This document shows positions 13,989-38,630 of a stretch of 64,000 nt of DNA, piece after piece. The position numbers were made by a program, and so were the translations under genes. The notes under the pieces were generated by a model. The model saw nothing but the letters and a program-made list of their open reading frames with translations. It was not told the origin of the DNA and searched no databases. The stretch comes from Candidatus Omnitrophota bacterium (lineage in GTDB: Bacteria; Omnitrophota; Gorgyraeia; 1-14-0-20-64-10). The stretch covers positions 13,362 to 77,361 of the forward strand of contig JAUSCU010000077.1 in the NCBI GenBank assembly GCA_030651065.1, given 5' to 3'. Each line of letters starts with the position of its first letter. Within the stretch, counting starts at the first letter, position 1.

Positions 13989-14064
13989 TCCCCGGTAGCT
14001 CAGTCGGTAGAGCGGCTGACTGTTAATCAGCATGTCCCAGGTTCGAGTCCTGGCCGGGGAGCCA
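13989..14064 (+). tRNA. tRNA-Asn (anticodon GTT)
   Basis: The acceptor stem is TCCCCGG/CCGGGGA. The D-arm is AGCTCAGTCGGTAGAGC. The anticodon loop is CTGTTAA, with GTT at 14022-14024. The T-arm is GGTTCGAGTCC. G is the discriminator, and CCA is encoded. Confidence 0.9.
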
Positions 14065-15555
14065 ATTTGGACGAAGAAGCCCTTCGGCGAGTATGCCGAA
14101 GGGCTTTCTATATGTAGGGACTACGGTTGCGTCAACGAGGGTGTAGTTCGAGGCCACGAACTTGAGGATGGAGGCCTTGCCTTCGTACTTGGATTTAAGG
14201 TATTGCGGGTATAGGCGGTTAGAGAGTTCGAGGGTTCTAGAGGCGTTCTCGTACCAGTTCGGGTTTACCTTCCCCAGGCCGTTCAGGATGGCCTTGATTT
14301 CCGCGATAGTTGCCCTGTATTCGCCTTCTTTGGCCTTAAACGCCTCTTCATCTAACTCCCTGTCCAAACGGGCGTCATAGAGGCGGGAGAGCCGTTGGCT
14401 TGCCCGTTCCAGTTCTTTTTGCAGAGAGGCGACACGGTTCTCGCGTAGATCCTGGCTCTTGGCGTCGGCTTCCCGCAGGGCATCTTTCAGCCAGTCCACC
14501 GTCCCAGCGTCCAACGTTACCGCCTTGACCGCCGGCTCGAAGAGATGGGCGATTCGGTTCTCAGGGACGTAACCCCAGCCGTCATGCCTCCCCTTTGAAA
14601 ACGTGCAGTGGTAGTAAACAAACCGCTTCTTCTTGATCTCCCCCAGAACCTTGCACCCGCATTTCCCGCAGACAACGAGGTTGTTGAAGGCGAACCCGAG
14701 CCGACTCGCGTGAGGACGCGCCTTGCCATGTAAAGCGGCGTGTGCGTTATCGAAAAGGTCTTTGGTGATGAGGGGGGTATGACTTCCGCTTCGCACCTGT
14801 CCCTGCCAACGGAACACCCCGTAATAAATAGGGTTTTTCAAGAGCCATTCAATCCCGCTTTTTCCAACGCGACGACCTTTCTTGCCCCGAAAACCCTCCT
14901 GGTAAAGCATCTTGGCGATAGTTGCCAAAGAATAGGAGCCGGAGGCCATTAATTGAAACGCTCTGCGGATAAAAGGAGCGCGGTCTTCGTCTACTTCGAT
15001 CAGGTGGGTAATTCGGTTGTTCCTGTAGCCAAGTGGGGCAACAGAAGGGTATAGCCCTTGTTCGGCTTTCTCCATCATCCCCATCTTTGTTTTTCGGGAG
15101 ATGTCGTTCGACATCTTCTTGGCAACCGCAACTTCGATGTCGAACATGAACTCGTCTTCCGAGCCAGAGTTTCGGTCAATGATCTTTCCGGTCCGTGAGA
15201 AATGGATGGTCTTTCCAAAGTCCTTAATGAGGGTGCAGATTTTCAGCTTGTCGAAGTCGTTGCGGGTCATGCGGTCGGTTACGTCAAAGATGATGTGCTT
15301 AACTTCGTCATGCCGTTTGGCGTACTCGACAAGCTGATTGAAAGCGGCGCGTTCGCTTCGCCAAGCCGATTCCGAGACCTTCCAACTTCGGACTATAGAG
15401 AGGTTCTTCCGCTGGGCGTAATCCAGCCCTAACTTTTCCTGGGCATCCAGGGAATAACCTTCTTCTTGGGCGGTGCTTGAAACGCGAACATACAGGACGG
15501 CTTTGGGCGAGCCGTGGTAGCCGTTTGCGGAGGGCTGTGGTTGTTTCCTTGTCAT
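14023..15555 (-). CDS. Large serine recombinase (resolvase-type catalytic domain + recombinase domain + zinc ribbon)
   Basis: AVLYVRVSSTAQ contains the catalytic Ser in the resolvase N-terminal domain. The protein is 510 aa, with a recombinase domain and a C-terminal Cys cluster (CGKCGCKV...HC). Its 3' end overlaps the tRNA-Asn 3' half. Confidence 0.85.
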   Translation of the reverse strand: MTRKQPQPSANGYHGSPKAVLYVRVSSTAQEEGYSLDAQEKLGLDYAQRKNLSIVRSWKVSESAWRSERAAFNQLVEYAKRHDEVKHIIFDVTDRMTRNDFDKLKICTLIKDFGKTIHFSRTGKIIDRNSGSEDEFMFDIEVAVAKKMSNDISRKTKMGMMEKAEQGLYPSVAPLGYRNNRITHLIEVDEDRAPFIRRAFQLMASGSYSLATIAKMLYQEGFRGKKGRRVGKSGIEWLLKNPIYYGVFRWQGQVRSGSHTPLITKDLFDNAHAALHGKARPHASRLGFAFNNLVVCGKCGCKVLGEIKKKRFVYYHCTFSKGRHDGWGYVPENRIAHLFEPAVKAVTLDAGTVDWLKDALREADAKSQDLRENRVASLQKELERASQRLSRLYDARLDRELDEEAFKAKEGEYRATIAEIKAILNGLGKVNPNWYENASRTLELSNRLYPQYLKSKYEGKASILKFVASNYTLVDATVVPTYRKPFGILAEGLLRPNWLPGQDSNLGHAD

Positions 15556-15604
15556 CTGTTTGACTCAGCGTTGAGAGTTGGGCGTCAAAACTTTCACCCT
15601 TTTC

Positions 15605-16693
15605 TCACTGTCCAGACTTCCTTCGATTGTGGTTTTTACAGAGCATCTGGCAATTTTCTTCGGAGGTTTTGCCATCCAAGTGCCAAGGCTTAATATGGTC
15701 AGCTTCCATTTCTTCAAGCTCCCAATGTTTTGTCTTTGGGCATTTCGAGCAGATGCCTTTCTGTTTTTCGTAAGCCTTTTGCTTCTGAGGATCGGTGAAC
15801 GCTCGAATGTTGAGATGCTTTTCCTCGTGTGTCAGAAGATATGGGTAAATCCCCTTCTTGTTCGTTACGTCGTCATCCGCAATCAGCTTCGCCGTCTCCG
15901 CCTCGATTTTTGCCGTGTTGAACTTTTTGTCTTTGAATTCGTTGTAGAGTGCGCCCCATGCGACGCCTTTCATGAATTTTCTTTTCTTCGTGAACGTTGC
16001 GCCAACCCACTCCATCACGTTCTGAAAATAACTCCACAGCGCCTTGGCATCGGCATCCTTTTGGTGCTTGCCCATGTAATCCTCAATCTTGCCACCAGAA
16101 GTCCAATCAATCACCGCTTCTAAATAATCCTGACGTATCGGGGAGCCGTCCATATAGTCCTGCCCGATTTGATACGCGGCGCAACCTGTCTTACTGAAAT
16201 ACCGTTTCGCGTCGGAAACCCATGAACCCGCATAGACGGCGTTTCGCAATTCCTGCTCCGTCAACTTTTCTCCCGCGATGTTGATTGTCCTGAACCAATC
16301 CAACCTCTCGCTGTCCGTGCCTGTGCATTGATAGACCATTAGCTTATAGTTGAGGATTTGCGCCTGCTTGTCGTCGGGCAGATTATGGAAATACAACTGC
16401 TGAAACGAGAAATTGCCCTTCACATACTGGCAAACGGAAATCGTCCGCTGTTGCCCGTCGATCACCTCAAAGTTGCCGTCCTCCCGCACCGCCCAATACA
16501 TTACGTTCAGCGGAAAAGCTTTCGTGACGGTGTTGATGACGGCGTCGCGCTGTTTGTCCTTGTAAATGAACTCCCGCTGATACGGCGGACGAATGTCGAG
16601 GTTACCGCCATAGCCGACAACCCCTTCGAGGCCTTTGTCCTCGTAGCCCTCCGCCAGTTCACGGACGGTTATTTCTTTGAGCGTGATTTGCAT
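15605..16693 (-). CDS. DUF262 (ParB/Srx-like, DGQQR motif) plus a C-terminal HNH endonuclease. The architecture is GmrSD/BrxU-like.
   Basis: FEVIDGQQRTISVCQY is the DUF262 signature. The C-terminus CSKCPK...ADHIKPWHLDGKTSEENCQMLCKNHNRRK is an HNH His-Me finger. The gene is AT-rich. Confidence 0.7.
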   Translation of the reverse strand: MQITLKEITVRELAEGYEDKGLEGVVGYGGNLDIRPPYQREFIYKDKQRDAVINTVTKAFPLNVMYWAVREDGNFEVIDGQQRTISVCQYVKGNFSFQQLYFHNLPDDKQAQILNYKLMVYQCTGTDSERLDWFRTINIAGEKLTEQELRNAVYAGSWVSDAKRYFSKTGCAAYQIGQDYMDGSPIRQDYLEAVIDWTSGGKIEDYMGKHQKDADAKALWSYFQNVMEWVGATFTKKRKFMKGVAWGALYNEFKDKKFNTAKIEAETAKLIADDDVTNKKGIYPYLLTHEEKHLNIRAFTDPQKQKAYEKQKGICSKCPKTKHWELEEMEADHIKPWHLDGKTSEENCQMLCKNHNRRKSGQ

Positions 16694-17703
16694 GTTGCCC
16701 TTTTCCGTTTGATAACGATGCGAACATAAGTTGGTTTGCCATTTATTGTCCCGTCATTATCCTTGATGAGGCCGTGTTCTTTGAATGGCGTGTTATCGTT
16801 CGTGCGAATGTCATTCGCGCTTATTATCTTAAATTGGTCAGGATTGTATTTATCCAAGAACGTAATCGGTACGCCCATCGCGCCGTCATAATCACATGGG
16901 ATTTCTGCGTATTTATCCACGTTTATGGCGTCGTAGTTATCGTATTTTGGATATTCTTTTCGGCTGTATTTCTTGTATAAGATTAAATCTTGGTGGCGTT
17001 TTGCAGTATCCAAATTGGTGAGCCACACAATCCTGCCGCTGCTAAAAAATTTTTGTCCGTTTTCAATTTTTACACGAGATTTGGTTGCGATGTCGTAATG
17101 GTCTTTCACTCCGAACCATTTTGTGCCGTAATTATCCATACCCAGCCATATTTTATTGTCTCTGATGAGCGTGAAAATTTCCTTGTACGTTGTGGCGTTC
17201 TGGTCGCCGATGATGACAAACTGTTTTCCGTATTTCACGAGTTGCGCTACATATTCCCTGAATAAAGAAAACGGGGGATTCGTGACCACGATGTCGGATT
17301 GTTTCAGCAGTTCGATAGATTCCTTGCTACGGAAATCACCGTCGCCTTGCAAATGTTTGAGTCCGATTCGTTCGGGGGTGGGAACCTTGCCGCCTTGTTT
17401 TTCGCCCGCGTATTCCAGATAGACGGCTTTCTCGGAATCGTTCTCGCTGAACAAATCGGCGTTCTGGTTTTTGTAGCAGGTGGTGATGAGTTTTTTCAGT
17501 CCCAGCTCCCCGAACTTATTGGAGAAATAATGGAAAAAATTGCTGACTTTTGGGTCGTCGCAGTTGCAGAGAACGACTTTGCCTTTGAAATGCTTTTTGT
17601 AATGGCTGAGTTCCTTTTCGATGTCGGTGAGTTGAGTGTAAAACTCATCATTTTTCGCTTGCCTTGCCTTGTGCAAATTTGTGTTTAGCGTCTTTTTTGA
17701 CAT
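16669..17703 (-). CDS. N6-adenine DNA methyltransferase (NPPF motif IV)
   Basis: VVTNPPFSLF is a (D/N)PP(F/Y) motif, and the N-terminal DEFYTQ region also fits. The gene overlaps the downstream nuclease gene by 25 nt and is AT-rich. Confidence 0.7.
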   Translation of the reverse strand: MSKKTLNTNLHKARQAKNDEFYTQLTDIEKELSHYKKHFKGKVVLCNCDDPKVSNFFHYFSNKFGELGLKKLITTCYKNQNADLFSENDSEKAVYLEYAGEKQGGKVPTPERIGLKHLQGDGDFRSKESIELLKQSDIVVTNPPFSLFREYVAQLVKYGKQFVIIGDQNATTYKEIFTLIRDNKIWLGMDNYGTKWFGVKDHYDIATKSRVKIENGQKFFSSGRIVWLTNLDTAKRHQDLILYKKYSRKEYPKYDNYDAINVDKYAEIPCDYDGAMGVPITFLDKYNPDQFKIISANDIRTNDNTPFKEHGLIKDNDGTINGKPTYVRIVIKRKRATCKSRSKK

Positions 17704-17708
17704 TTAGT

Positions 17709-17927
17709 TCACCCCAAAAGCCGATCGTACTTGCGGCGCTCGGGCTTGCTGGAGATTAGCTTCTTGATTTGATACTCCTGGATTGGGCTGGGGCTAACGT
17801 GGCGCTTGAGCCAGCGGTTGACGGTGGTGAAGGCAACCCCTAGCTTCTTAGCGAGGATCTGCTGGGTGATCTTGTTTTCGAGGCGGTAATGTTCGAGGCG
17901 GTCTATCATGTCCATAGTGTTTAGCAT
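17709..17927 (-). CDS. Small HTH DNA-binding protein (Xis/XRE-like)
   Basis: I chose the internal start MLNTMDMIDRLEHYRLENKITQQILAKKLGVAFTTVNRWL. The sequence matches a helix-turn-helix pattern. The gene lies immediately downstream of the tyrosine integrase. Confidence 0.45.
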   Translation of the reverse strand: MLNTMDMIDRLEHYRLENKITQQILAKKLGVAFTTVNRWLKRHVSPSPIQEYQIKKLISSKPERRKYDRLLG

Positions 17928-17928
17928 C

Positions 17929-19023
17929 TTATAGCACCTTATCTTTGAGGGCAAGCAAAACTTTGTCCAGCTTCTCGTCCAGCGTTGCCCTGGGGTTGCC
18001 AGCAAAGTCCATGCTCTTGATGATCTCTGTGAGCCGTGAGGGGGTGTAGTTGCCATAGGACGAAAGGGTAGTGGCGATATATTCGTGTCCGAAGTTTTGG
18101 CTTACGGCTTTCATTTCTTCCCCGTCTTTGCAGGAAGCGACTGCCAAATTGACTGCAAGGTGTCGGAAGGTGTGCGGGGGGAAGTAGGGCAGACTTGCCG
18201 CCTGGGAACGCTTCTTAAAAATCTCTCTGATTCTGCCCGTCCCTTGCCAGAAGGCAGGTTCCACATCGGACGATGCCTCGAAGCTGAGGTTGTCCGCGCC
18301 CTGATCTAGCTTGGACCGGGGAAAGAGGGGGTCTTGGGAGCCAAAGCCCTTCCCTTCCAGGTGTTTCACCCAACCCGTTAGGAATCCCACCATCTTTTGG
18401 TCAAATGGGAAAATGGTGGTGGGGATCAGCTTGGCGAACTTGGTTTCGACCCCTTTTCTCGGATTTTGGAGGATGGTCAACTTCTCTTTGTCGAAGCACC
18501 CAAGCGGCAAGGTGGCAACAGCTCGATCCCTCATCCCACTCAGAAGCGTGAATGAAATCAACGCTCTGTCCCGCAGATCAACCTCGGTCTTCGGCTCGAT
18601 GGAATCAACGAGCTTTCGGACGTAATCCAGAGAAGGGTAGTTGCGCGGGGTAGATTGGGTGGCAATCCGCTCTTCTTTCTCTGTGATCTTGAGGTAGTCC
18701 ACCGCATTGGGTTTGATTCTGCTTCTGTATCCCGTTTCCCGAACAAGCCAGCCGAAGAACTTCCGCAGGTACCTCATGTAGGCATGGTAGGTAACAATGG
18801 AAATCGGCTTGCCCCGAAACGCCCGTTTTGCCAACCACTTTTTGAAGTCAATTGCCTTATCGGAGTTGTAAAGGGCGAAGTCCTCATTCTTGGAGAACTC
18901 CTGCCAAAGCAATATGGCGTTCTCGATGTTGTTGACGGTCGAATCGCAACAGCCGGCCGCCTCTTTCAACCACCTAAAAAACGACCTCTTCACCCGCTCA
19001 TTTTTGGCGCTTACTTTTCGCAT
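17929..19023 (-). CDS. Tyrosine-type site-specific integrase
   Basis: A C-terminal catalytic region with HTFRHLAV...LSSYGNY (the conserved R, H-x-x-R and Y) is present, and the N-terminal SAM-like region contains RDRALISFTLLSGMR. The protein is 364 aa. Confidence 0.75.
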   Translation of the reverse strand: MRKVSAKNERVKRSFFRWLKEAAGCCDSTVNNIENAILLWQEFSKNEDFALYNSDKAIDFKKWLAKRAFRGKPISIVTYHAYMRYLRKFFGWLVRETGYRSRIKPNAVDYLKITEKEERIATQSTPRNYPSLDYVRKLVDSIEPKTEVDLRDRALISFTLLSGMRDRAVATLPLGCFDKEKLTILQNPRKGVETKFAKLIPTTIFPFDQKMVGFLTGWVKHLEGKGFGSQDPLFPRSKLDQGADNLSFEASSDVEPAFWQGTGRIREIFKKRSQAASLPYFPPHTFRHLAVNLAVASCKDGEEMKAVSQNFGHEYIATTLSSYGNYTPSRLTEIIKSMDFAGNPRATLDEKLDKVLLALKDKVL

Positions 19024-19531
19024 TTTCCCGTCCTTTCAAGATGTCAGTCTTCACGGAGCTAATCCCACTACCGTTTATTACTTCCAGGGGTTCCGTGAAA
19101 ATCAGACCGTTTTTCGTCCATTCCGCCGCCTTTCGGTCGGAGGAAAAGAGGAGAAGCGACTGGTCGCAGACTTCGCAGACGCCCCGGAGCAAGACCTGTT
19201 TGTGGGTTTTCCCAAGCCGCCGTTGGGTTGCCTGGGCGGCAAGTCGGTCGGGGCGGCTCCTGCGGGGTTCCCTGCACCTGGGGCAGTAAAACTCTCCGAT
19301 CTTGAGGGGCTTCTTTCGGCTCCGAAGCCGCGCTTTCAGGAAATCCCGAAGGTCTTGTCCCATGACCAGGAACGGCCTGGTGTGGTCTTCCAGGATTTTT
19401 AACCCCTCTTTGTGCCATACCTGAACCGTTCGGACGTGGGTTTCCAGCTTCTCGGCGATGTCCGCGAAGGAGTATGCCCGCTTTGCCTTGAGGAGCCGGC
19501 CGTTATGCGTCCGATTTTTTCTCGTCCGCAT
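18998..19531 (-). CDS. Hypothetical HTH plus Cys4 zinc-ribbon protein
   Basis: An HTH-like stretch (AYSFADIAEKLETHVRTVQVWHKEGL) and a zinc-ribbon-like stretch (CPRC...CEVC) are present. Confidence 0.4.
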   Translation of the reverse strand: MRTRKNRTHNGRLLKAKRAYSFADIAEKLETHVRTVQVWHKEGLKILEDHTRPFLVMGQDLRDFLKARLRSRKKPLKIGEFYCPRCREPRRSRPDRLAAQATQRRLGKTHKQVLLRGVCEVCDQSLLLFSSDRKAAEWTKNGLIFTEPLEVINGSGISSVKTDILKGRENAKSKRQK

Positions 19532-19790
19532 CTTCCCTATCCAGCTTGTCCAGGAGCCGAAAAAGCCCCGTCATGTTCTCGGCAATCTCCCGCGCATCCT
19601 CAAGTGTGAGGGGATAGGGATAGCGGGGTTGCCAGAACTTGATCGTCCGTTGAAGAAACTCTTCGCTAAACTCAGCCATAAGGTGTCGCGCAATGTCCTT
19701 TATGGCTAATGGAGAAAAATCACCAACGAGAGCCGATTTCTTGATGGCAAAACGGGGTTTTAGAGGGAGTGGCAGGGCAAAAAAAGTCGG

Positions 19791-19845
19791 CGAAAAATCA
19801 CCGAGGCCGGTGATAAATCACCCAAGCGGGTGAAAAATCACCGAG
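19791..19845. repeat. Three direct iteron-like repeats, spaced 20 bp apart
   Basis: The repeats are cgaaaaatcaccgag at 19791-19805, tgataaatcacccaag at 19811-19826 and tgaaaaatcaccgag at 19831-19845. Confidence 0.55.
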
Positions 19846-21013
19846 AATCGGATTCGGGCGTCAGGTTGATCTTGATGCGGTAGGAACTGTTCTCTTTGTA
19901 GGGGTAGAACGGGTCGCCTTTGATACCGAAACAGTCCCGCAGGGTTTTCGAGAGAAGCTGTTTCTTCTTTTTCAGGGTATCTCTCGCTTCGGAATCGTCC
20001 CAAGAGAACTCCCCGCCCCTCATGGCGAGGAGCTTTAAAAACTCCCATTGTTGGTTAGGCTTGCGGTTCCTGGCGTCCTCAAAGCCCATTTCCTTGTAGT
20101 GGGCGGTTACGGGTGTCTTGGTATCCTTGCCAGAGATTTTCACGTTATGGCCGTCCAAGAACTGAACGGTGAGGGCATCCCATTTCAAATGCTGGAACGG
20201 TTTGGAAGCATCCTTTTTCTGGGCTAGCGGGATAGGCTGGGGTTCTGAGGTATCGGCATCGAATTGGCTTTCTGGCAGTTTCAGAAGCTCGGCTTTGAAA
20301 AGATTGAACCGCTTGATGTCAATTTCAACGCGTATGTCCAGGACCATACCAAGATTGGAATGAGGAAACTCGAATCGGTCCACCACCCCTTTGTTTTTCA
20401 GGAACAAGAGGGCATATCGTCTGGCATCGTGGTTTTGGGTAGAACTGGCGGGAACCCACGTAATCCGAACTATCTGCGATGGATTAAGCTGGAATTTCTC
20501 ATCAATATCCAGGACGGCCTCACGCACTTTCTGTTTGTTTAGCGGAGTAAGGTCGGACAGCTTAATTCTGCGCCTGTGGAGAAGAATCTCCCGCCAGTTA
20601 TTGAACTCGGAGAACAAGATAAGCGTAATGGGGATGCTTTCGGGAAGCGGCGCGGGTCTATATGCCGGAACCGGTTTTCTTACTTCGGATATGCCCGTAT
20701 AGTTCGGAAAAACAAACGTATCCTCTCTTTCGTTGGGCGGAATGAGTTCTTTCCCATAATTCGTTTGGCTGATCGCAAATGCGTGTGCGCTCTGCTCGAC
20801 CATCGTTTCCAACACTACCAGCGTTTCATAGCGATAAAGCTTATCCAGTTGATTTTTTGGATTTGGGGTTAGCGCCACTTCGCCGGACGTGTTGTTTTCA
20901 GTAGCCGCTATGAGCGCGTCGCAGACAATAGCGAACTTTTCTTTTCCATCTAATGACGGCGTTTTCTTCTTATACCGAAAATCGCTTGGGTCTGGATGCG
21001 GGACTATAGGCAT
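19838..21013 (-). CDS. Hypothetical protein (391 aa, AT-rich, no domain I recognise)
   Basis: This is a long ORF transcribed divergently from the plus-strand defence operon. Its composition matches the island. Confidence 0.4.
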   Translation of the reverse strand: MPIVPHPDPSDFRYKKKTPSLDGKEKFAIVCDALIAATENNTSGEVALTPNPKNQLDKLYRYETLVVLETMVEQSAHAFAISQTNYGKELIPPNEREDTFVFPNYTGISEVRKPVPAYRPAPLPESIPITLILFSEFNNWREILLHRRRIKLSDLTPLNKQKVREAVLDIDEKFQLNPSQIVRITWVPASSTQNHDARRYALLFLKNKGVVDRFEFPHSNLGMVLDIRVEIDIKRFNLFKAELLKLPESQFDADTSEPQPIPLAQKKDASKPFQHLKWDALTVQFLDGHNVKISGKDTKTPVTAHYKEMGFEDARNRKPNQQWEFLKLLAMRGGEFSWDDSEARDTLKKKKQLLSKTLRDCFGIKGDPFYPYKENSSYRIKINLTPESDSR

Positions 21014-21098
21014 TTCCGATCCTCATTGACTGCTGGCATTTAAGGCAACTTTAAGCATAATATAGCGTGAAAGGCCAGCTAACGGAACGAGCATTCGG

Positions 21099-21890
21099 AT
21101 GACCCCAACGCCCCCATTCTCTGAACGACACGGCTATCAGCCCCAAGCTAAACCCATAACTATTTGGCACGAAGCCCCGCCATTTATGAGAGCAGCCATT
21201 TTGTCTGTTGCTGCTAAATCGGGGTTTCATCCAAATGGTTTACGATCCGTGATATGCGCTGTCCTAGATGAGATCCCGAATACGGGGCAAAATTGGAGTC
21301 CATCAAATGTCCTAGAGGAATGTGAAGGCCTGATTCATGGTTGCGAATGGTTCGAGGTTTATGACATTTGCGAAGCTCTAGCACGGGAAAGGCCATCCTA
21401 TGACGTTGAGCCTGGAGTTTTTGAGAAGAATTTGAACAATTTTTTCTTGAAAAAAGGCATCGGCTGGAAGATGGAGAACGGTTTGTTGTCAGTGCGCGGA
21501 GAGCAGGACTATGAAAAGGTAACCGCCGAAGCCATAGGCATTTTAGAGCAATCGGGGCGGTCAACTGCCCTGGGGGAACTTAGAGAAGCAATACGGGATT
21601 TGGCGAGGCGTCCAGAGCCAGACTTAACGGGTGCTGTTCAACATGCTATGGCCGCTCTCGAATGTCTTGCTAGGGATATGTGCGACTCCAAAAAGACCTT
21701 AGGTGATCTAATTAGAGAATTAGGGCTTCCAGCGCCCGTTGATGTAGCAGTCGAGAAAATGTGGGGTTTCGCCAGCAATCAAGGACGCCATGTTGCGGAA
21801 GGCAAGAAGCCGGAGCTTCCAGAAACCATGCTGACCGTCCATTTTTGTTCCGCGATAGTCTCGTACCTGTTGCAGAGAAAAACAGCGTAA
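21099..21890 (+). CDS. AbiJ-N-terminal-domain-like protein (possible Abi/HEPN-associated)
   Basis: The N-terminus MTPTPPFSERHGYQPQAKPITIW matches, from memory, the FS[EQ]RxGY start of AbiJ-NTD4-type proteins. I could not verify the C-terminal domain. Confidence 0.3.
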   Translation: MTPTPPFSERHGYQPQAKPITIWHEAPPFMRAAILSVAAKSGFHPNGLRSVICAVLDEIPNTGQNWSPSNVLEECEGLIHGCEWFEVYDICEALARERPSYDVEPGVFEKNLNNFFLKKGIGWKMENGLLSVRGEQDYEKVTAEAIGILEQSGRSTALGELREAIRDLARRPEPDLTGAVQHAMAALECLARDMCDSKKTLGDLIRELGLPAPVDVAVEKMWGFASNQGRHVAEGKKPELPETMLTVHFCSAIVSYLLQRKTA

Positions 21891-21936
21891 TAAGAAGATG
21901 GGGAACGGAGCAATCTAGCATTAGGCGGAGGTTGTC

Positions 21937-22635
21937 GTGAAAACATTACTCTGGGCGGTTGTGGTCATCGGCACGGTAGGTGCGCTCTTAGCCGGATTTA
22001 TACTCGTCCTTCTTAGATTGCGCGAAACAACCTTTGTGAGTGGGGAGTTTTTCAGGGAAACGATGGCTCAGATTATCGCGGGGTTGTTGATTGCCCTCAT
22101 TGCTTCTCTTGCCTCATTTTGGTCAGCCTATGGGTTATATAAGCTCCAGGAGAACGACAAGGTTGCTTCTTCGCAGGCAGATGCTTTCATAAAGATTAAA
22201 AACGAGGTCTCCGAAAATCGGTTAACTCTTGGACAAGAACTAAAACGAGAAAAACCTCTTGTTCGTAATCTTTTAAAAACAGAAGCTTGGGACGCGGGAA
22301 AGTATCAGACTCCAATAAAGACACCCTTGCTACTCGATGGGCTGAAACTCCTGTACGATTTAATCGAAAAATACAACTGGCACACTAATTTCCTTCGCTT
22401 CAAGGTCATGGAGCAAGGCTTGACCCAACAAGGCGTTCCCGAAACCGTCTGGAAATCTGATGCCGCAATAATGAAAGAAGTTTATTCAAAACTAGAGGAA
22501 TTTGAGAACCTCACGACGCGGGAGCTTATTTTGCTGGGTCACGGCTCTCAAAGTGAATTTGAGAAGAGATTCGGACCCTGGCAGGCGCAGGTTGATATTT
22601 CGTTTTTTAAACAGGCCGCCAAAGACGGCAAGTAG
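21937..22635 (+). CDS. Small membrane protein with two TM helices
   Basis: The first TM helix is LLWAVVVIGTVGALLAGFILVLL and the second is IIAGLLIALIASLASFWSAYGL. A soluble C-terminus of about 150 aa follows. A 3-bp gap separates it from the next gene. Confidence 0.5.
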   Translation: MKTLLWAVVVIGTVGALLAGFILVLLRLRETTFVSGEFFRETMAQIIAGLLIALIASLASFWSAYGLYKLQENDKVASSQADAFIKIKNEVSENRLTLGQELKREKPLVRNLLKTEAWDAGKYQTPIKTPLLLDGLKLLYDLIEKYNWHTNFLRFKVMEQGLTQQGVPETVWKSDAAIMKEVYSKLEEFENLTTRELILLGHGSQSEFEKRFGPWQAQVDISFFKQAAKDGK

Positions 22636-22638
22636 CTA

Positions 22639-23511
22639 ATGAACGAGCCGGCAGTAAGTTTCGATTGTTGTGTTGAGGGTTACCTCAACAATTTTCAATG
22701 TGACAATCCAAGCGTTTTTGAGGGTGCTCCGGGGGTTATGCTGTCCCCGTTAAGTGATGAGGAAAAAAGAGAACTCAAAAATATCTCGGCATTCCATTCC
22801 GGTTATTCATTTGCTGAATGGAAATTAGAAATAAGTTTGTCATCGGTAACTGGAATAGGCGAAGCTGATAATAAAGCAGAAGCAATAATCCAGGATGTCG
22901 TAACTTCGCTTAGATTAACCAAGTCGGGTGGAGTAGAGATCCGCACTTTGAGATTTAGATCGGATAACCTCCCTCCTAATATTTCATTCCTTAATAATTC
23001 GGGCGTAACCAATCCGCAACCGAGCTATAGAGAAGGTACGTATCAATGTTCCGGGTCGGATCTCGAACAAACCCGTAACATCTATAGAAAACTACAGCAA
23101 GCCGTTTCGAGCAGATTGCGGATAGGAATCGGCCGCTTCAACACCGCATACCTAGATTATCGTGATGAAGATAAGTTGATCGACAATATCACAGCTTTGG
23201 AAGCCCTTTTATTGCGAGAATCACAAGAGCTAAGTTTGAGGCTATCCCTGCGCTGTGCTTGTTTGCTTCGTAAAGGAGATGAGCGCAAAACGCTGTTTGA
23301 GTTCGTGAAAGAGGCTTACTCTTGGCGCAACAAGCTAATTCACGGGGGACAATATAATCTCCCGGACGAGCTTGTAGTAGGCCAAACCAAATTTAACAAG
23401 CATTCCTTCCTAGTATTTCTGCAACAAGTAGTTCGTGACTGCATAAAACTTTCTTTAATGAATTCGGAAATGGTCGATAAGAAAAATCTCGAAAATCTAA
23501 ATCCATTCTAG
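22639..23511 (+). CDS. HEPN-domain protein (Rx4H motif), Abi/Apea-like
   Basis: The C-terminal region ITALEALLLRE...LRLSLRCACLL...VKEAYSWRNKLIHGG contains the R-x4-H HEPN RNase signature. A 2-bp gap separates it from the SIR2 gene. Confidence 0.55.
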   Translation: MNEPAVSFDCCVEGYLNNFQCDNPSVFEGAPGVMLSPLSDEEKRELKNISAFHSGYSFAEWKLEISLSSVTGIGEADNKAEAIIQDVVTSLRLTKSGGVEIRTLRFRSDNLPPNISFLNNSGVTNPQPSYREGTYQCSGSDLEQTRNIYRKLQQAVSSRLRIGIGRFNTAYLDYRDEDKLIDNITALEALLLRESQELSLRLSLRCACLLRKGDERKTLFEFVKEAYSWRNKLIHGGQYNLPDELVVGQTKFNKHSFLVFLQQVVRDCIKLSLMNSEMVDKKNLENLNPF

Positions 23512-23513
23512 AA

Positions 23514-24557
23514 ATGAGTTCTCCTGATGAATTTAGCGTTACAAAAGAGCAGGAAATCCGCCAGTTGGCTATGTTGAGACCTCATGTGGTGATCGTCGGA
23601 GCCGGCGCCTCGGTCGCATCATTTCCGCGTGGCGACAGGAATGGTCGAATGCTTCCTGTGATGGATAACTTGGTAGAAGTATTACAGCTCCGAAATTTGT
23701 TTGAAAAACATGGCGTGAAGCATGAGGGAATCGGTTTTGAGACATTATATGCTGAGCTTTATGAGGACGAAAAACTTCGCCCATTATGCACGGGGCTGGA
23801 AGAGCGAATCTCAGAGTATTTTCAACAGGTAGAAATTGTCGACGATCCTACTATTTACGACCATTTAGTGCTTTCCCTTCGGAAAAAGGATGTCCTAGCT
23901 TCTTTTAATTGGGACCCTCTTTTGCTGCAGGCCTATTTGCGGGTCGGCCATAAAGGGTTTCATGTGCCGCGATTAATTTTCCTGCATGGCAATGTGGGAA
24001 TTGGTTTTTGTGAAAAAGACCGACAACTCGGAGTGAAGGGTCGCCTTTGTACTGAATGTAGAAAGAGCCTCGCGCCATCGAAATTGTTGTATCCGGTAAC
24101 TAAAAAAGATTACCAGTCAGACCCCATGATTAAAGGCCAATGGGACGAGTTATTGGCCGCCATGAAACGAGCTTTTATGATCACGATTTTTGGCTATTCT
24201 GCTCCTAAAACTGATGTTGGCGCGATCGATTTACTACTCAATGCATGGAAGGGGGAGCGCGAAAGAGAGCTAGAACAAGTTGAAATTATAGACATTAAAA
24301 CGGAAGAAGAACTTCGGCGGACGTGGGAACCATTCATTTTTTCTCACCATTACGAGACATTGACCGATTTCTATGAATCGTATCTAGCCCGACACCCCAG
24401 GAGAAGCGGGGAGGCGTACATGAATCAATTTATCGAAGGCAAATTCACGGAAGATAACCCACTGCCAAAGAGTGTCGGATTTGAAGAGCTAGAAAAGTGG
24501 GCGCAACCACTTCAACATCGAGAGACATTGGCTGGCTATTCTATGTTCTCTGGATAG
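23514..24557 (+). CDS. SIR2-like (SIR2_2 family) NAD-dependent protein, a candidate NADase effector
   Basis: VVIVGAGASVASFP is the SIR2_2 N-terminal Rossmann motif. FNWDPLL is the N-x-D motif containing the catalytic Asn. LHGNVG is the HG motif containing the catalytic His. A partial zinc module CEKD...CTEC is present. Confidence 0.7.
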   Translation: MSSPDEFSVTKEQEIRQLAMLRPHVVIVGAGASVASFPRGDRNGRMLPVMDNLVEVLQLRNLFEKHGVKHEGIGFETLYAELYEDEKLRPLCTGLEERISEYFQQVEIVDDPTIYDHLVLSLRKKDVLASFNWDPLLLQAYLRVGHKGFHVPRLIFLHGNVGIGFCEKDRQLGVKGRLCTECRKSLAPSKLLYPVTKKDYQSDPMIKGQWDELLAAMKRAFMITIFGYSAPKTDVGAIDLLLNAWKGERERELEQVEIIDIKTEEELRRTWEPFIFSHHYETLTDFYESYLARHPRRSGEAYMNQFIEGKFTEDNPLPKSVGFEELEKWAQPLQHRETLAGYSMFSG

Positions 24558-24626
24558 CTGATTTTATGATTCAATAGGGACATCTCTGCGACTGTTGGGA
24601 AGTGAGGATTGGTTTCAAGGATATTC

Positions 24627-24668
24627 CCGTACAGGAAGCAGTTGCGAAGTTCGTCCAGTACGGGGAGT
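24627..24668. repeat. 41-bp hairpin-containing repeat, copy A
   Basis: The sequence ccgtacaggaagcagttgcgaagttcgtccagtacggggagt has palindromic arms CCGTAC/GTACGG. It is about 108 bp upstream of the gene at 24776. Confidence 0.6.
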
Positions 24669-24775
24669 CTTCCTTTGTTCATTTTCCATTCAGACAGACG
24701 ACCCGGCCGGGGCGCCCTCTTTGGACGGGAAAGCCCTTCTAGGAGTATACTGAATCCAATTCAGGAGGTGACGCG

Positions 24776-25174
24776 ATGAAGAAGAGCTGGTTACAGGGGC
24801 TCACCCTGGCATTGGTTATTGTAGGAACGGTTTTCCTCTTCCGGGTTGGCGTGGGAATCTCAAGTGAGAAGGCACGTCTGCAGGACGACGCGTCCGTTGA
24901 AGGTTCCGTCGTTTCTCTCGATCAATCCTCTCCCATTCCGGTCCTCGATTTAAAGACAGCCGACGACAAGATCGTCAAGATAAACATCGACAGCGAAACC
25001 ACCGTTTTGCAGGATAACCAGGTCGGCTCGTTGGGCCAACTGGCTCCCGGCCAGCGCGTGAAGGTCCATTACGGGACCAAGAACGGAAAGCAGGTCACCA
25101 CCTCCGTTGTCATCATTTCGCCCCTTCTCAGTTTTCCACCTGCGAATGAGCAGCCCCATCCCCTTGGGGAGTAG
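24776..25174 (+). CDS. Secreted hypothetical protein with a beta-rich OB-like fold
   Basis: A signal/TM segment (LTLALVIVGTVFLF) is present, and the coding pattern is good. Confidence 0.4.
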   Translation: MKKSWLQGLTLALVIVGTVFLFRVGVGISSEKARLQDDASVEGSVVSLDQSSPIPVLDLKTADDKIVKINIDSETTVLQDNQVGSLGQLAPGQRVKVHYGTKNGKQVTTSVVIISPLLSFPPANEQPHPLGE

Positions 25175-25216
25175 CGCGCGCGTTTCACCGACAAATAAAC
25201 CTAAAGGAGGTGCGCC

Positions 25217-25390
25217 ATGTTGTCATGGTCACTGGCGTTCTTTGTCATCGCGATCATCGCCGGCATTTTCGGCTTCACGGGGATAGCCGCCGGCGCCGTC
25301 GAAATCGCGAAAATCCTGTTTCTGCTTTTCCTCGTGCTGTTCCTCGTGTCTCTTGTTTTCGCGCTGCTCTTAGTGCGCCCCAGGTCTTAG
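25217..25390 (+). CDS. UPF0391/DUF1328 small membrane protein (57 aa)
   Basis: My hand translation gives [58 protein letters not shown] strong RBS (AAGGAGG) lies 6 nt upstream. Confidence 0.6.
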
Positions 25391-25933
25391 ATGAGCGCAT
25401 TTGCCGATCGGATCGTTCGGGCCGCGAGGCTTGACCCGAGTTTGTACGAAGAAGTGGAGGCGGACCGGGCCGCTTTCCCCCAGGCTGCGGCAACGGTGGT
25501 TTTATCAAGCGTTGCAGCGGGATTGGGACTGCTTTGGCCTGGGGTAGGCCTGGAAGGGTTGTTTTGGGGCACTCTGGCGGCCCTCGTGGGATGGGTTGCC
25601 TGGGCGTGCGTGATCTGTTTTGTGGGGACTCAGCTACTCCCGGGATCTCAGACCTCCTCCAACATGGGGGAGGTGTTGCGGTGCGTTGGATTTGCCAGCG
25701 CCCCCGGTTTGATCCGCGTTCTGGGGGTGTTTGCGCCGATTCGGCCGGTTGTTTTCCTTGTCGTTTCGGTTTGGATGCTGGCCGCCACGATTGTGGCTGT
25801 CCGGCAGGCGCTTGATTATTCGAGCACGCTCAAGGCAGTTGTTGTCTGTCTCGTCGGATGGGTGATTCAAATCCTGGTACTCGTGGCCATCCTGCGGCTT
25901 AGCGGAGCGCCCTATCTGGTTGTAACTCCCTAG
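25391..25933 (+). CDS. Yip1-family membrane protein
   Basis: The N-terminal soluble segment is followed by about 5 TM helices, which matches the Yip1/DUF1282 pattern. Confidence 0.5.
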   Translation: MSAFADRIVRAARLDPSLYEEVEADRAAFPQAAATVVLSSVAAGLGLLWPGVGLEGLFWGTLAALVGWVAWACVICFVGTQLLPGSQTSSNMGEVLRCVGFASAPGLIRVLGVFAPIRPVVFLVVSVWMLAATIVAVRQALDYSSTLKAVVVCLVGWVIQILVLVAILRLSGAPYLVVTP

Positions 25934-25966
25934 CCCTGCCAGCATAGAGGATCAAAGACAGGTTTT

Positions 25967-26008
25967 CCGTACAGAAAGCAGTTGCGAAGTTCGTCCAGTA
26001 CGGGGAGT
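25967..26008. repeat. 41-bp hairpin-containing repeat, copy B
   Basis: The sequence ccgtacagaaagcagttgcgaagttcgtccagtacggggagt differs from copy A by 1 nt. It lies upstream of the LpxL-like gene. Confidence 0.6.
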
Positions 26009-26050
26009 TTTGGGGGGCGGAGGATGATCTCCTCCGCCCTTTTTCTTTAG

Positions 26051-26983
26051 GTGAGACTCCGGGAGAGTCCCGACTGGGGAGCTTTTTTAGGGGAGTATAA
26101 TAAAGCCCATATGTTTAGGGGATATTTATTTCAATTTTACGCGGTTCAAGCCCTCATTCTAGTTTTAAGGATTCTTCCTTTATCGCTCTCCGGTTGGATG
26201 ATGAAACGCGCGGCAAACCTCTTCTTTTTCTGTTCCCCCAAGCGAAGGAATGTCGCGCTGGATAATCTTACGCTAGCCTACGGAAACACGCTTTCCTCCG
26301 GTCAGAAAAGAAAAATAGCCCGGCAGTCTTTCGAGAGCCAAGCGCTTTCCATGCTGGAGCTGTTTGTAATCAAGAAAATAAAGAAAGATGCTGGTCGCCG
26401 GTTTTCCATTACGGGACAGCAGAATTTCAATGAGGCCGCGGCTCGCGGGAAAGGCGTGGTGTTTGTCGCCTCTCACTTGGGTTCCTGGGAATACATCGGA
26501 TTCCCGGGTTATCTCGCGCGGTATCCGCATTCGGTAATCGTCAAAAACATCAAGAACCCCTATCTCAACAAAATGATCGATGCCTTGCGAAGGGAAATCG
26601 ATACCCTGCCCATCCTTAAGGAAGCGAACGCCCTACGGATCACCTTGGCCGAGTTGCGGAAGAATCACGGGGTCGCGATCGTGATTGACCAGTGGGCGGG
26701 AGCAGAAGGGCTGTGGGTCGATTTCTTTGGAAGGGCCACCTCCACCACCTCTTTCCCGGCCCGGCTGGCCAAGAAAACGGGATCCGCGTTAATTCCGATT
26801 TATTGCTTAAGAAAAGAACTGGGCCGCTACGAGATCCAACTGCTTCCGGAAGTTCCCTTGCCGGAGGACCCGGAATGGGAGTTTCGCGTCACGAAGCGTT
26901 TAAATGAATTGCTTGAATCTCAGATCCGAAAATGCCCGGAGCAATGGTCTTGGAACCACAGGCGTTGGAGGCCCCGGCCATGA
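26051..26983 (+). CDS. Lipid A biosynthesis late acyltransferase (LpxL/HtrB/MsbB family)
   Basis: The N-terminal TM segment, the LAYGNTLSSGQKRKIARQSFE region and the VFVASHLGSWEY region are typical of the LpxL family. The true start may be an internal Met. Confidence 0.6.
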   Translation: MRLRESPDWGAFLGEYNKAHMFRGYLFQFYAVQALILVLRILPLSLSGWMMKRAANLFFFCSPKRRNVALDNLTLAYGNTLSSGQKRKIARQSFESQALSMLELFVIKKIKKDAGRRFSITGQQNFNEAAARGKGVVFVASHLGSWEYIGFPGYLARYPHSVIVKNIKNPYLNKMIDALRREIDTLPILKEANALRITLAELRKNHGVAIVIDQWAGAEGLWVDFFGRATSTTSFPARLAKKTGSALIPIYCLRKELGRYEIQLLPEVPLPEDPEWEFRVTKRLNELLESQIRKCPEQWSWNHRRWRPRP

Positions 26984-38626: not shown

Positions 38627-38630
38627 AGTT

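Follow-up and report, generated by a model that had tools for sequence, protein, structure and literature searches.

A 10.6 kb serine-integrase defence island at tRNA-Asn, from an apparently uncharacterised family of integrative elements

The results of this analysis suggest that a stretch of about 10.6 kb (~14056-24667) in a Candidatus Omnitrophota genome is a single integrated mobile element rather than two fused ones, and a probability of roughly 0.8 may be given to this reading. The element belongs to a widespread and apparently uncharacterised family, in which the serine integrase is inferred to insert at the very last bases of a tRNA gene, the integrase gene runs backwards into that tRNA, and anti-phage defence genes and often a second recombinase are carried. 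The window, i.e. the whole stretch of DNA analysed, is 64,000 nucleotides long (GenBank assembly GCA_030651065.1, contig JAUSCU010000077.1, positions 13,362 to 77,361), and all coordinates are given relative to its first letter. The features of the region are as follows.

13989-14064, plus strand: tRNA-Asn(GTT), intact, the integration target (B arm of attL)
14055-14061, plus strand: core shared by attL and attR (CGGGGAG, the end of the acceptor stem plus the discriminator), with an inferred central dinucleotide GA at 14059-14060 (tRNA nt 71-72)
14076-14107, plus strand: 13-bp hairpin followed by a U-rich tract just downstream of the tRNA, encoded on the opposite strand by the integrase peptide KPF...EGL, probably a replacement terminator for the tRNA
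14023-15555, minus strand: large serine recombinase (LSR, 510 aa), the integrase of the element
15605-17703, minus strand: cargo slot 1, a type II restriction-modification (RM) pair, with the REase (DUF262/GmrSD_N + HNH) at 15605-16693 and the M.EcoRI-like methyltransferase at 16669-17703
17709-17921 (approximate), minus strand: small HTH_3 (Cro/CI-type) protein, a candidate regulator or directionality factor, with its start codon chosen by homology
17929-19023, minus strand: tyrosine recombinase (YR, 364 aa, Xer-like 'simple' type), a conserved backbone gene
18998-19679, minus strand: backbone genes p177 (18998-19531, weak sigma-70 region 4-like HTH) and p58 (19503-19679)
19789-19842: three palindromic operator-like sites, GGTGA-N4-TCRCC, at 20-bp spacing between p391 and p58
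19838-21013, minus strand: p391, a backbone protein with no known family and the first gene of the backbone operon
21040-21109, minus strand: conserved intergenic block containing a promoter-like TATATTAT, upstream of p391
21099-24557, plus strand: cargo slot 2, an AbiJ-like / PDC-S32 gene (21099-21890) and three genes of unknown function (21937-22635, 22639-23511, 23514-24557)
24598-24667, minus strand: P arm, the distal end (attR) of the element, with the conserved motif TGGACGAACTTCGCAACTG (24639-24657) and the core (24661-24667); in the excised form it would encode the LSR tail LPVLDELRNCFLYGNILETNPHF...
24700-24760, minus strand: scar of an older element, a tRNA-like fragment (24700-24716) joined to the last ~14 codons of an LSR gene (FSILLEGLSRPKR, 24717-24760)
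24776-25933, plus strand: three small membrane or secreted-protein ORFs (24776-25174, 25217-25390, 25391-25933) between the two P arms, either cargo of the decayed older element or host genes
25964-26011, minus strand: second, truncated P-arm copy, probably the original attR
26012-26042, plus strand: the strongest terminator-like hairpin of the region, probably the native terminator of tRNA-Asn, displaced about 12 kb by the insertions

A sequence-only reading of the window had described a composite island in the 3' half of tRNA-Asn, with a serine recombinase ending in the anticodon loop, a tyrosine integrase with a small HTH protein and two low-GC blocks, and the observations on the tRNA, the two recombinases, the HTH protein and the GC content are confirmed. 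The tRNA was called by ARAGORN and by Rfam (RF00005, 72.1 bits). The stop codon of the LSR gene, TAA, is the complement of 14023-14025 and thus overlaps the second and third anticodon bases plus nt 37, and the last 14 codons (42 nt) are the antisense of the tRNA 3' half. The LSR has Resolvase (64.8 bits), Recombinase (57.1 bits) and Zn-ribbon (21.8 bits, below the Pfam cut-off) domains, matches PHROG_95 'integrase' at 253.9 bits and is similar to the A118 integrase in the PDB. The YR lies 2.4 kb further on; its Pfam score (25.3 bits) is just under the cut-off of 27.1 bits and its NCBIfam XerA/XerC hits are weak, but PHROG_1 'integrase' gives 69.6 bits and the catalytic residues (R..K..HxxR..GH..Y) are conserved in 19 sequences. 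GC content is 0.42–0.51 at 15.5–17.75 kb and 0.42–0.52 at 19.75–24.75 kb, against 0.58–0.66 in the left flank (8–13 kb) and 0.62–0.69 beyond 28.7 kb. A search with a 42-mer or 20-mer allowing up to three mismatches found no second copy of the tRNA 3' half in the window. The imperfect 13/15 match at 24702-24716, proposed as a candidate distal att, exists but is not above chance on its own (4 such matches in the window, 0.71 expected), and it gains meaning only because the next 45 nt resemble the LSR 3' end. A better-supported distal end lies 35 nt to its left, at 24598-24667.

The interpretation offered with these observations, that of two elements accreted in tandem, is only partly supported. 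An integrative island of foreign base composition is indeed present at tRNA-Asn, the LSR/tRNA overlap is real, and the right boundary is within about 50 nt of the position proposed. However, the presence of two recombinases is not evidence of two accreted elements, the insertion is not in the 3' half of the tRNA, since the crossover maps to the last bases of the acceptor stem, and the two low-GC blocks are the two variable cargo slots of a single element. The accretion that did occur is of a different kind, a 1.3 kb remnant of an older element of the same family lying at about 24668-26007.

Homology searches found 381 LSR homologs; in a set of 120 of these, identity is 54–91%, and about 70 of the 120 end in tRNA-antisense peptides such as WLPxxDSN. 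In 61 of 80 genome loci carrying a homologous LSR (numbered here with the prefix L), spanning Planctomycetota, Omnitrophota, Zixibacteria, Elusimicrobia, Desulfobacterota, Acidobacteriota and others, the 3' end of the LSR gene overlaps a tRNA gene in antisense; by the ARAGORN calls, these are Asn (31), His (11), Gln (8), Thr with intron (4), Arg (3), Glu (2), Asp (1) and Ala (1). In 54 of the 61, the conserved Trp codon TGG is the complement of the CCA of the tRNA. The hairpin just downstream of the tRNA in the window folds at -25.7 kcal/mol (z = -5.1), and equivalent hairpins occur in L012, L027, L036, L099 and, more weakly, L022. An identical LSR and RM segment was found in an independent sequencing run.

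In relatives from several phyla, the LSR and the YR sit in one conserved backbone, p391-p58-p177-YR-HTH-[cargo]-LSR-tRNA, which is collinear in L002–L008 and others, with different cargo in each. Among the 50 loci with at least 5 kb of flank, the YR, p177 and HTH lie upstream of the LSR on the same strand in 17 (15 of 22 in the subclade with LSR identity of 50% or more), whereas 33 lack this YR, and most of the latter still have the tRNA overlap; the tRNA association therefore follows the LSR. Both recombinases are also found on L099, an apparently circular contig of 6649 nt with a 30-nt exact terminal overlap, which carries homologs of p391 (weak, 27% over 119 aa), p177, YR, HTH and LSR and an intact attP, although its circularity rests on a k-1 terminal overlap that a tandem duplication would also produce. 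The HTH protein has tblastn hits in 32 related loci, where it lies directly upstream of the LSR or of the cargo slot, and p177 homologs were found in 17 loci, always just upstream of the YR. No hits to p391 were obtained in Pfam, PADLOC, PHROGs or the PDB, its homologs occur only in related elements, and an AF2 model (pLDDT 76.6) gave no fold match. The operator-like sites (5 strand-matches, 0.35 expected) are conserved in L003 and L005, and the intergenic block upstream of p391 is 84–93% identical to L003, L005 and L007 although flanked by unrelated cargo. The type II RM system of slot 1 is well supported (PADLOC REase_II 447.7 bits and MTase_II 432.3 bits; Pfam EcoRI_methylase 452.5 bits), and relatives have other cargo at this position. 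The AbiJ-like gene of slot 2 matches AbiJ_NTD4 (Pfam, 65.9 bits) and PDC-S32 (PADLOC, 77.6 bits), and the slot 2 genes have no homologs in any related locus.

Comparison of attL and attR in eight loci (the window, L003, L005, L007, L012, L018, L022 and L027) showed that the two ends share only 3–12 nt (7 nt in the window), always including positions +1 to +3 after the TGG codon, with a dyad CGTCCA(-12..-7)/TGGACG(+11..+16) centred on +2/+3. L096 and L097, an empty and an occupied site from sister metagenomes, are 99.97% identical over 6951 nt and then diverge right after the core CTGCCCC, into the tRNA-Gln body in L096 and into a P arm in L097. These comparisons place the crossover at the end of the acceptor stem, which explains why no repeat of the tRNA 3' half exists, although the exact position remains an inference from sequence. 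The P arm of the window is 84–88% identical to the far ends of L003 and L005 and 82% to that of L007. Its motif occurs twice in the window, against 0.04 expected, and is always in the LSR orientation in 12 loci. Substitutions by codon position in the P-arm tail are 44/49/87, but this signal comes from only four related sequences. L005 also has an 18-nt exact tRNA-end repeat 204 nt outside its P-arm motif, so that the active end is ambiguous in that locus.

To the right of the element, the scar at 24700-24760 can be aligned to 14040-14125. The second P-arm copy is identical to 24624-24671 at 45 of 48 nt, homology between the copies ending after 48 nt, and contains the second motif hit (25979-25997). 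The three small ORFs between the P arms (GC 0.54–0.61) gave only a weak DUF1344 hit. The hairpin at 26012-26042 has a 13-pair stem with 8 GC pairs and a T tail, and the layout matches that of the empty tRNA-Gln site of L096. The region up to 26007 is a decayed earlier insertion bounded by a second P arm and the native tRNA terminator, although a simple tandem-integration history does not explain the 32 nt and the tRNA-like fragment lying between the P arm and the LSR-like scar.

Of the alternatives, the one that survives best, although it seems unlikely, is that this copy is an immobilised relic that no longer excises and persists only because of its defence cargo. The two ends share only 7 nt, the distal region holds scars and a decayed neighbour, the same junction to the tRNA is seen in an independent sample, and no circle and no empty tRNA-Asn site from a close relative of this host was found, the nearest LpxL-bearing contig having a different neighbourhood. 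However, the LSR ORF is full length and keeps the residues that are invariant across 34 aligned family members, such as S26, R24 and the Cys cluster, both arms match the family consensus, and the backbone genes are all intact; serine integrases need only a 2-bp match, so short identity is not a defect. It has also to be considered whether the YR is the true tRNA integrase, with the LSR serving another purpose, such as resolution, inversion or cargo exchange, because in described systems integration at tRNA 3' ends that preserves the gene is the hallmark of tyrosine integrases (PMC5704250) and the catalytic residues of the YR are intact. This seems very improbable given the many tRNA-overlapping loci that lack the YR, the fixed codon-to-CCA register of the LSR gene, which is the one that abuts the tRNA, the dyad layout of the arms, as expected of a serine-integrase attP, and the identity between the two ends, which can be as short as 3 nt, too short for a 6–8 bp tyrosine-recombinase overlap region. 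Successive insertion of a serine-recombinase element and a tyrosine-integrase element, suggested by the unrelated recombinases, the separate low-GC blocks and the tandem arrays that do occur in this family, is already contradicted by the collinear module, which lies 0–6 kb upstream of the LSR and shows broadly parallel divergence, by the contig L099, by the absence of any P-arm motif or tRNA fragment between the two recombinases, and by the coincidence of the low-GC blocks with the cargo slots.

The LSR shares its architecture (resolvase catalytic domain, recombinase domain, zinc ribbon and a coiled-coil region), its short att sites with imperfect dyad symmetry and the very limited identity between attP and attB with phage and ICE large serine integrases (A118, phiC31, Bxb1, TP901-1, SPbeta SprA, CcrAB of SCCmec), the A118 integrase being its best solved relative. 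It is, however, at most 29% identical to any integrase in 50,697 phage and 72,556 plasmid records. The characterised enzymes are described as inserting within or at the end of protein-coding genes, with attP beside rather than inside the int ORF, whereas here the target is a tRNA gene that is kept intact and attP overlaps the 3' end of the integrase ORF. As in classical tRNA-integrating islands and prophages with tyrosine integrases (Williams 2002 sublocation classes; Islander/TIGER islands), the target is a tRNA 3' end, the gene is restored by element-borne sequence, the integrase gene lies next to the tRNA, and tandem arrays and decayed neighbours accumulate at the site, but the recombinase family is different, there is no long direct repeat of the tRNA 3' segment at the eight P-arm junctions compared, and only the last few bases of the tRNA are replaced. 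In SSV1-type archaeal integrases and in the integration-dependent immunity of mycobacteriophages, attP also lies inside a coding sequence of the element, so that integration changes the encoded protein. Those systems use tyrosine integrases, SSV1 integration splits int into two pieces, and the affected gene in the mycobacteriophages is the repressor, whereas here only the C-terminal tail of a serine integrase is exchanged. Tycheposons are small cargo-carrying site-specific integrative elements, 27 of 937 of which use an LSR (bioRxiv 10.1101/2020.12.28.424599). They reportedly insert at tRNA genes. Some subgroups of marine VEIMEs carry both a serine and a tyrosine recombinase (PMC9618062). These elements come from different hosts (Prochlorococcus and marine virus particles), no ORF/attP/tRNA overlap is described in the text of those papers that was examined, and no relative of this LSR was found in IMG/VR. 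Defence islands on integrative elements, such as P4-like satellite hotspots and pipolins, resemble this one in organisation only, with a conserved integration and maintenance backbone and hypervariable slots filled with RM and abortive-infection-type genes, but the backbone genes and the recombinase are different.

The anatomy of the element, the family-wide tRNA overlap, the conserved arms, a circular relative (with the reservation made above for L099) and one occupied/empty polymorphism are demonstrated by these data, whereas the exact crossover, the mobility of this particular copy, the terminator role of the hairpin and the role of the YR are inferred. The YR is a conserved accessory of one subclade, and it may, as no more than a best guess, resolve multimers of the excised circle. 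In the proposed model, attP straddles the 3' end of the LSR gene, the P' arm being the last ~25 bp of conserved coding sequence, ...CGTCCAaatTGG, and the P arm the conserved motif TGGACGAnTTTCGCAACTG; the attP junction would read ...CGTCCAAATTGGCTCCCCGTACTGGACGAACTTCGC... The target attB would be the T arm, acceptor 3' strand and discriminator of a tRNA gene, with strand exchange inferred at a central dinucleotide at tRNA nt 71-72. The tRNA body would therefore stay host DNA, the element supplying only the last 1–2 acceptor-stem bases, the discriminator, CCA and a new terminator hairpin. Once integrated, the LSR ORF reads on into the antisense of the tRNA and stops in the anticodon loop, whereas in the excised circle, or in a tandem array, the same ORF would end in a P-arm-encoded tail (LDE[LF]RNW...).

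The sequence-only reading, which had described a large serine recombinase (LSR) open reading frame running into a tRNA-Asn gene, a tyrosine recombinase with a small HTH protein further into the island and two low-GC blocks, is confirmed as far as these observations are concerned. The features found in the window are as follows.

13989-14064, plus strand: intact tRNA-Asn(GTT) (ARAGORN and Rfam)
14023-15555, minus strand: LSR, 510 aa, with Resolvase, Recombinase and zinc-ribbon domains
15605-16693, minus strand: DUF262/HNH endonuclease, called a type II REase by PADLOC (447.7 bits)
16669-17703, minus strand: M.EcoRI-like methyltransferase, called a type II MTase by PADLOC (432.3 bits)
about 17709-17921, minus strand: small HTH_3 protein
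17929-19023, minus strand: tyrosine recombinase (YR)
following the YR, minus strand: p177 and p58
19789-19842: three palindromic operator-like sites
19838-21013, minus strand: p391, a protein of unknown family
up to 24557, plus strand: an AbiJ-like / PDC-S32 gene and three unknown genes

The stop codon of the LSR is the complement of 14023-14025, and its last 14 codons, reading W L P G Q D S N L G H A D and stop, are therefore the antisense of the 3' half of the tRNA, with the Trp codon TGG complementary to the CCA end. The GC content is 0.42-0.52 at 15.5-17.75 kb and 19.75-24.75 kb, against 0.58-0.69 in the flanks. An Rfam search of the island found only the tRNA. A protein 100% identical to p391 is recorded from an NCBI MAG named Candidatus Omnitrophota bacterium, and the identical LSR and restriction-modification (RM) segment also occurs in an independent sequencing run, on a contig that breaks inside the tRNA. 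The three palindromes, GGTGA-N4-TCRCC, lie at exact 20-bp spacing between p391 and p58 (0.35 expected by chance) and are conserved in the related loci L003 and L005 (related loci carry L numbers throughout), where a fourth copy lies downstream; they are probably operators for the HTH protein or for p177.

By domain content, the 510-aa protein is a member of the large serine recombinase family. The N-terminal resolvase catalytic domain scores 64.8 bits (Pfam PF00239, cut-off 23.3 bits), and R24, S26 and S27 are invariant in 34 sequences. The recombinase domain PF07508 scores 57.1 bits (cut-off 21.1 bits); the zinc ribbon that follows it, PF13408, scores 21.8 bits, below its 25.3-bit cut-off, but C296, C299, C301 and C317 are invariant. 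Residues 158-324 match the RD-ZD region of A118 integrase, the best solved relative, and PHROG_95 'integrase' gives 253.9 bits. The ORF at 17929-19023 belongs to the tyrosine recombinase superfamily on the basis of its sequence: R, K, HxxR, GH and Y are conserved in 19 homologs and PHROG_1 gives 69.6 bits, although Pfam PF00589, at 25.3 bits, falls just under its cut-off of 27.1 bits. The adjacent methyltransferase and endonuclease genes are of matching families, as expected of a type II RM system (Pfam EcoRI_methylase 452.5 bits, GmrSD_N and HNH), their activity being inferred from sequence alone. The same RM pair sits in slot 1 of a different backbone in L096 (L096:3461-5561 versus window 15605-17703), with 77% protein identity for the REase and 76% for the MTase, although the LSR is only 58.6% and the YR 66% identical, which suggests cargo exchange between elements.

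The overlap between the LSR and the tRNA is a family trait. The LSR has hundreds of homologs; the 120 listed are 54-91% identical, and about 70 of them end in peptides such as WLPGQDSNLGH, WLPRLDSNQRP or RGRRDSNSRPP, which are translations of the antisense of a tRNA acceptor and T arm. A scan of one genome per species returned 308 relatives. The best 80 of these are MAGs and one single-cell genome of Planctomycetota, Omnitrophota, Zixibacteria, Brocadia, Elusimicrobia, Desulfobacterota, Acidobacteriota, Binatia and others.

Situation at the LSR 3' end in the best 80 of 308 relatives
tRNA on the opposite strand overlapping the LSR end: 61 loci
Contig ends at the LSR: 4 loci
No tRNA called (several still show tRNA-like sequence): 15 loci

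ARAGORN calls the 61 tRNAs Asn 31, His 11, Gln 8, 'Thr' with intron 4, Arg 3, Glu 2, Asp 1 and Ala 1, and in 54 of the 61 TGG is the complement of an encoded CCA. In the closest relatives, the default tRNA scan found nothing, because the tRNA next to the LSR carries a group I intron in its anticodon loop (L002:4259-4477, L005:11492-11694 and L007:11496-11713; Rfam RF00028, 83.9, 70.4 and 51.2 bits, respectively). With introns allowed, ARAGORN calls some of these tRNAs 'Thr'. The tRNA-Asn of the window has no intron.

Around the closest LSR homologs the same gene order recurs: p391-like, p58, p177, YR, HTH, variable genes, LSR, tRNA. The variable genes differ between loci.

Cargo between the HTH gene and the LSR
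L002/L003: GmrSD
L005/L006: 867-aa type IIG RM enzyme
L007: N6/N4 methyltransferase plus a ResIII helicase
Window: type II RM pair

Nucleotide homology between the window and these loci falls into four blocks: the far end (24598-24667), a promoter-like block (21040-21109), the core (17801-20606) and the LSR (14024-15495). The intervening 15496-17800 and 21110-24597 are unrelated, and these two gaps are exactly the two low-GC blocks of the sequence-only reading; they are the two cargo slots of one backbone. A family-specific HMM finds this YR, always upstream of the LSR and on the same strand, in 17 of 50 loci with at least 5 kb of flank: 15 of 22 where the LSR is at least 50% identical, and 2 of 28 in more distant branches. 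Contig L099 (6649 nt) has a 30-nt exact terminal overlap, as expected for a circle assembled with k = 31, and carries homologs of p391 (weak, 27% over 119 aa), p177, YR, HTH and LSR together. The earlier interpretation, in which the two recombinases reflect tandem accretion of two elements, is therefore not supported, and as a whole that interpretation is only partly supported. Nor does the YR appear to be responsible for insertion at the tRNA: 33 of the 50 loci lack it, and most of these still have the tRNA overlap, so that the tRNA association belongs to the LSR, although this evidence is indirect. Cassette capture by the YR found no support either, as homology to relatives simply ends at the HTH stop and the LSR start, and no conserved repeats or recombination sites were seen at the slot borders. 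A prophage, phage satellite or other viral origin was rejected, as PHROGs gave no structural or packaging hits, IMG/VR contained no relatives, and identity in phage and plasmid records was at most 29%.

A direct repeat of the tRNA 3' segment at the distal end, typically of 15 nt or more in classical tRNA islands and proposed beforehand as a test of the island, was sought with the 42-mer and the 20-mer at up to 3 mismatches, and no copy of the tRNA 3' half was found elsewhere in the window. Among the 80 related loci, only L005/L006 (18 nt) and L012 (12 nt) show an exact repeat of at least 11 nt within 10 kb, and the idea of a displaced tRNA half was dropped. The 18-nt repeat of the tRNA 3' end (CTCCCCCGCCAGGACTCG; L005:1675-1692 and L005:11447-11464, the same in L006) lies 204 nt outside the P-arm motif of that element, and may be either its active end or a remnant of an earlier event. 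An apparent intron-like similarity at the L005 far end was rejected because the alignment score came almost entirely from this 18-nt match.

The far ends do, however, share a conserved arm (the P arm), which in LSR orientation reads C[TC]CCC-N4-TGGACGAnTTTCGCAACTG(G/C). It is found in the window (twice), L003, L005, L007, L018, L021, L022 and L027, with a diverged copy in L012 (TGTACGACTTTCGCAACTGG). In the window, the motif occurs at 24639-24657 and 25979-25997, against 0.04 hits expected. The two junctions of each element were compared.

Identity shared by attL and attR
Window: CTCCCCG
L003: TGGCTCCCCGG
L005: CTCCCC
L007: CTC
L018: CTCCCCC
L022 (tRNA-Gln): TTG
L027: TGGCTCC
L012: GAATGGCTCCCC

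All of these blocks, 3-12 nt in length (7 nt in the window), include positions +1 to +3 after the TGG codon. The coding-side arm has CGTCCA at -12 to -7 and the far arm has TGGACG at +11 to +16, a dyad centred on +2/+3. A central dinucleotide TC is therefore inferred, which is GA in tRNA sense at nt 71-72 (window 14059-14060). Under this model, the tRNA body remains host DNA and the element contributes only the last 1-2 acceptor-stem bases, the discriminator and CCA. The attP junction predicted for the excised element would read ...GGGCTTCTTCGTCCAAATTGGCTCCCCGTACTGGACGAACTTCGCAACTGC..., and an empty attB would read ...GGTTCGAGTCCTGGCCGGGGAGTCTTCCTTTGTTC... or ...CCGGGGAGTTTTGGGGGGCGGAGG..., depending on which distal site is used. 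Independent support for the model comes from two sister metagenomes, L096 and L097, which are 99.97% identical over 6951 nt and then diverge immediately after the core CTGCCCC: L096 continues into an intact tRNA-Gln (an empty site with its own terminator), whereas L097 continues into a P arm (an occupied site). The dyad arms, the short identity blocks and this single occupied/empty pair are consistent, in silico only, with attP x attB recombination at a 2-bp crossover between short, weakly similar sites.

When the LSR reads across a junction into a P arm rather than a tRNA, its tail becomes ...WLP(x)LDE[LF]RNW..., as seen in the tandem arrays of L003 and L018, in the L099 circle and in the database proteins P0050, P0075, P0086 and P0104. 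At L003:1-693, a second, divergent LSR (30% identical to the first) lies in tandem upstream of the element, and its ORF runs in frame into the P arm of the downstream element (...SWLPGLDELRNWFLYGNIIEINPHF...). For the window, the predicted excised-form protein, of about 539 aa against the 510 aa of the tRNA-tailed form, ends ...NWLPVLDELRNCFLYGNILETNPHFPTVAEMSLLNHKISYPENIE before its stop codon. Among the four closest elements, substitutions in this tail fall 44/49/87 on codon positions 1/2/3 in the LSR frame, which hints that the tail is translated, but the sample is small. The conserved peptide KPF...EGL, just before the arm, is a DNA palindrome (AAGCCCTTC / GAAGGGCTT), which on the tRNA-sense strand forms a 13-bp hairpin (14076-14107, -25.7 kcal/mol, z = -5.1) followed by a U-rich tract. 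Equivalent hairpins occur in L012, L027, L036, L099 and, more weakly, L022, including a canonical terminator in the tRNA-His subfamily (L036). This hairpin is read, by inference, as a replacement terminator for the tRNA, whose native terminator would be displaced by the insertion.

By homology, the distal arm of the element is 24598-24667, with its core at 24661-24667, giving an element of about 10.6 kb (14056-24667). The distal att candidate of the sequence-only reading, an imperfect 13/15 match to the tRNA 3' end at 24702-24716, is at chance level on its own, with 4 such matches in the window against 0.71 expected. It is, however, followed by about 45 nt that align with the LSR 3' end, reading FSILLEGLSRPKR on the minus strand, against FGILAEGLLRPNW in the intact LSR; this is a scar of an earlier element of the same family. 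Three small membrane or secreted-protein ORFs follow (24776-25933), then a second, truncated P arm (25964-26011, 45 of 48 nt identical to the first) and, immediately after it, the strongest terminator-like hairpin of the region (26012-26042), a layout that mirrors the empty tRNA-Gln site of L096. The whole insert between the tRNA and its probable native terminator is thus about 11.95 kb, consisting of the 10.6-kb element plus a 1.3-kb remnant. The 32 nt and the tRNA-like fragment between the first P arm and the scar are not explained by a simple two-step history; one possibility is a former second tRNA-Asn copy. Two or three P-arm motifs 0.9-2 kb apart are also found in several other loci (L096:7069-9017, L097:5061-6965 and L022:2128-4098, compared with window 24639-25997), each short segment holding one to three genes (single methyltransferase genes in L096-L098), and these segments are either decayed elements or integrase-less cassettes.

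No empty tRNA-Asn site from a close relative of this host was found. A metagenome scan with the neighbouring LpxL returned relatives (L088, 89% nucleotide identity), but with a glycosyltransferase upstream and no tRNA, and a search for the neighbouring DEAD-box helicase returned no record. In L002 and L005, the tRNA-Asn and its element lie directly beside PEPC (L002) or PilZ-PEPC (L005), in the opposite orientation, whereas in the window (13989-28670) they are about 14 kb away and inverted, with LpxL and RNase D in between; the region has been rearranged between close lineages. The LpxL-like acyltransferase and RNase D genes (26000-27500) have a GC content of 0.50-0.53, clearly lower than the 0.60-0.69 of the surrounding host genes, although they look like housekeeping genes. 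A dense set of tRNA genes lies at 33795-43614: four tRNA-Ser with different anticodons, tRNA-Arg(GCG) and tRNA-Lys(TTT).

The best explanation, to which a probability of about 0.8 is given, is a single LSR-driven integrative defence element of a widespread tRNA-3'-end-targeting family, followed by a decayed older copy. The tRNA overlap, the gene order and the conserved arms are read directly from the sequences, whereas the exact crossover, recombination by the LSR, the activity of the RM pair, the terminator role of the hairpin and the regulatory meaning of the tail swap are inferences. The element works like a tRNA-targeting genomic island, but lacks two defining features of the classical kind: it has no long tRNA repeat, and the responsible enzyme appears not to be the tyrosine recombinase. 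A few percent of tycheposons carry an LSR, and some marine satellites carry both recombinase types. No description of this clade, of its ORF/attP/tRNA arrangement or of serine integrases that restore a tRNA was found in the accessible literature, which is incomplete, so that prior description cannot be excluded; the LSR survey of Durrant et al. does not mention tRNA at all.

A more speculative possibility, unlikely on present evidence but not excluded, is that integration state is written into the integrase itself. Because attP lies inside the LSR ORF, the excised element would make an LSR with a conserved tail of about 33-43 aa encoded by the P arm (LDE[LF]RNCFLY.N..E.NPHF...), whereas the integrated element would make an LSR with a short tail encoded by the antisense of the host tRNA. 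This tail swap could set directionality or stability, giving an integration-proficient form and an excision-competent or silenced form without a classical directionality factor, and the same 60 nt or so would also encode, on the other strand, the CCA end of the tRNA and a replacement terminator. It is likewise not excluded that the short segments bounded by P arms (window 24668-26007 and the 0.9-1 kb single-gene units in L096-L098) are integrase-less cassettes mobilised in trans by the LSR, forming integron-like arrays at tRNA genes.

Island finders that look for tRNA-fragment repeats will miss the distal ends of such islands. As tRNA genes are universal and nearly invariant, and serine integrases need no host factors, these enzymes would be candidates for integration tools with predictable, conserved landing sites. 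In described systems, serine integrases insert into protein-coding genes and often disrupt them, while tRNA 3' ends are the territory of tyrosine integrases (PMC5704250). The finding challenges this working rule, as a large clade found across many uncultured phyla appears to have solved the tRNA problem differently, cutting at the last bases of the acceptor stem and packing into one stretch of about 100 nt the integrase C-terminus, half of attP, the tRNA CCA end and a putative terminator.
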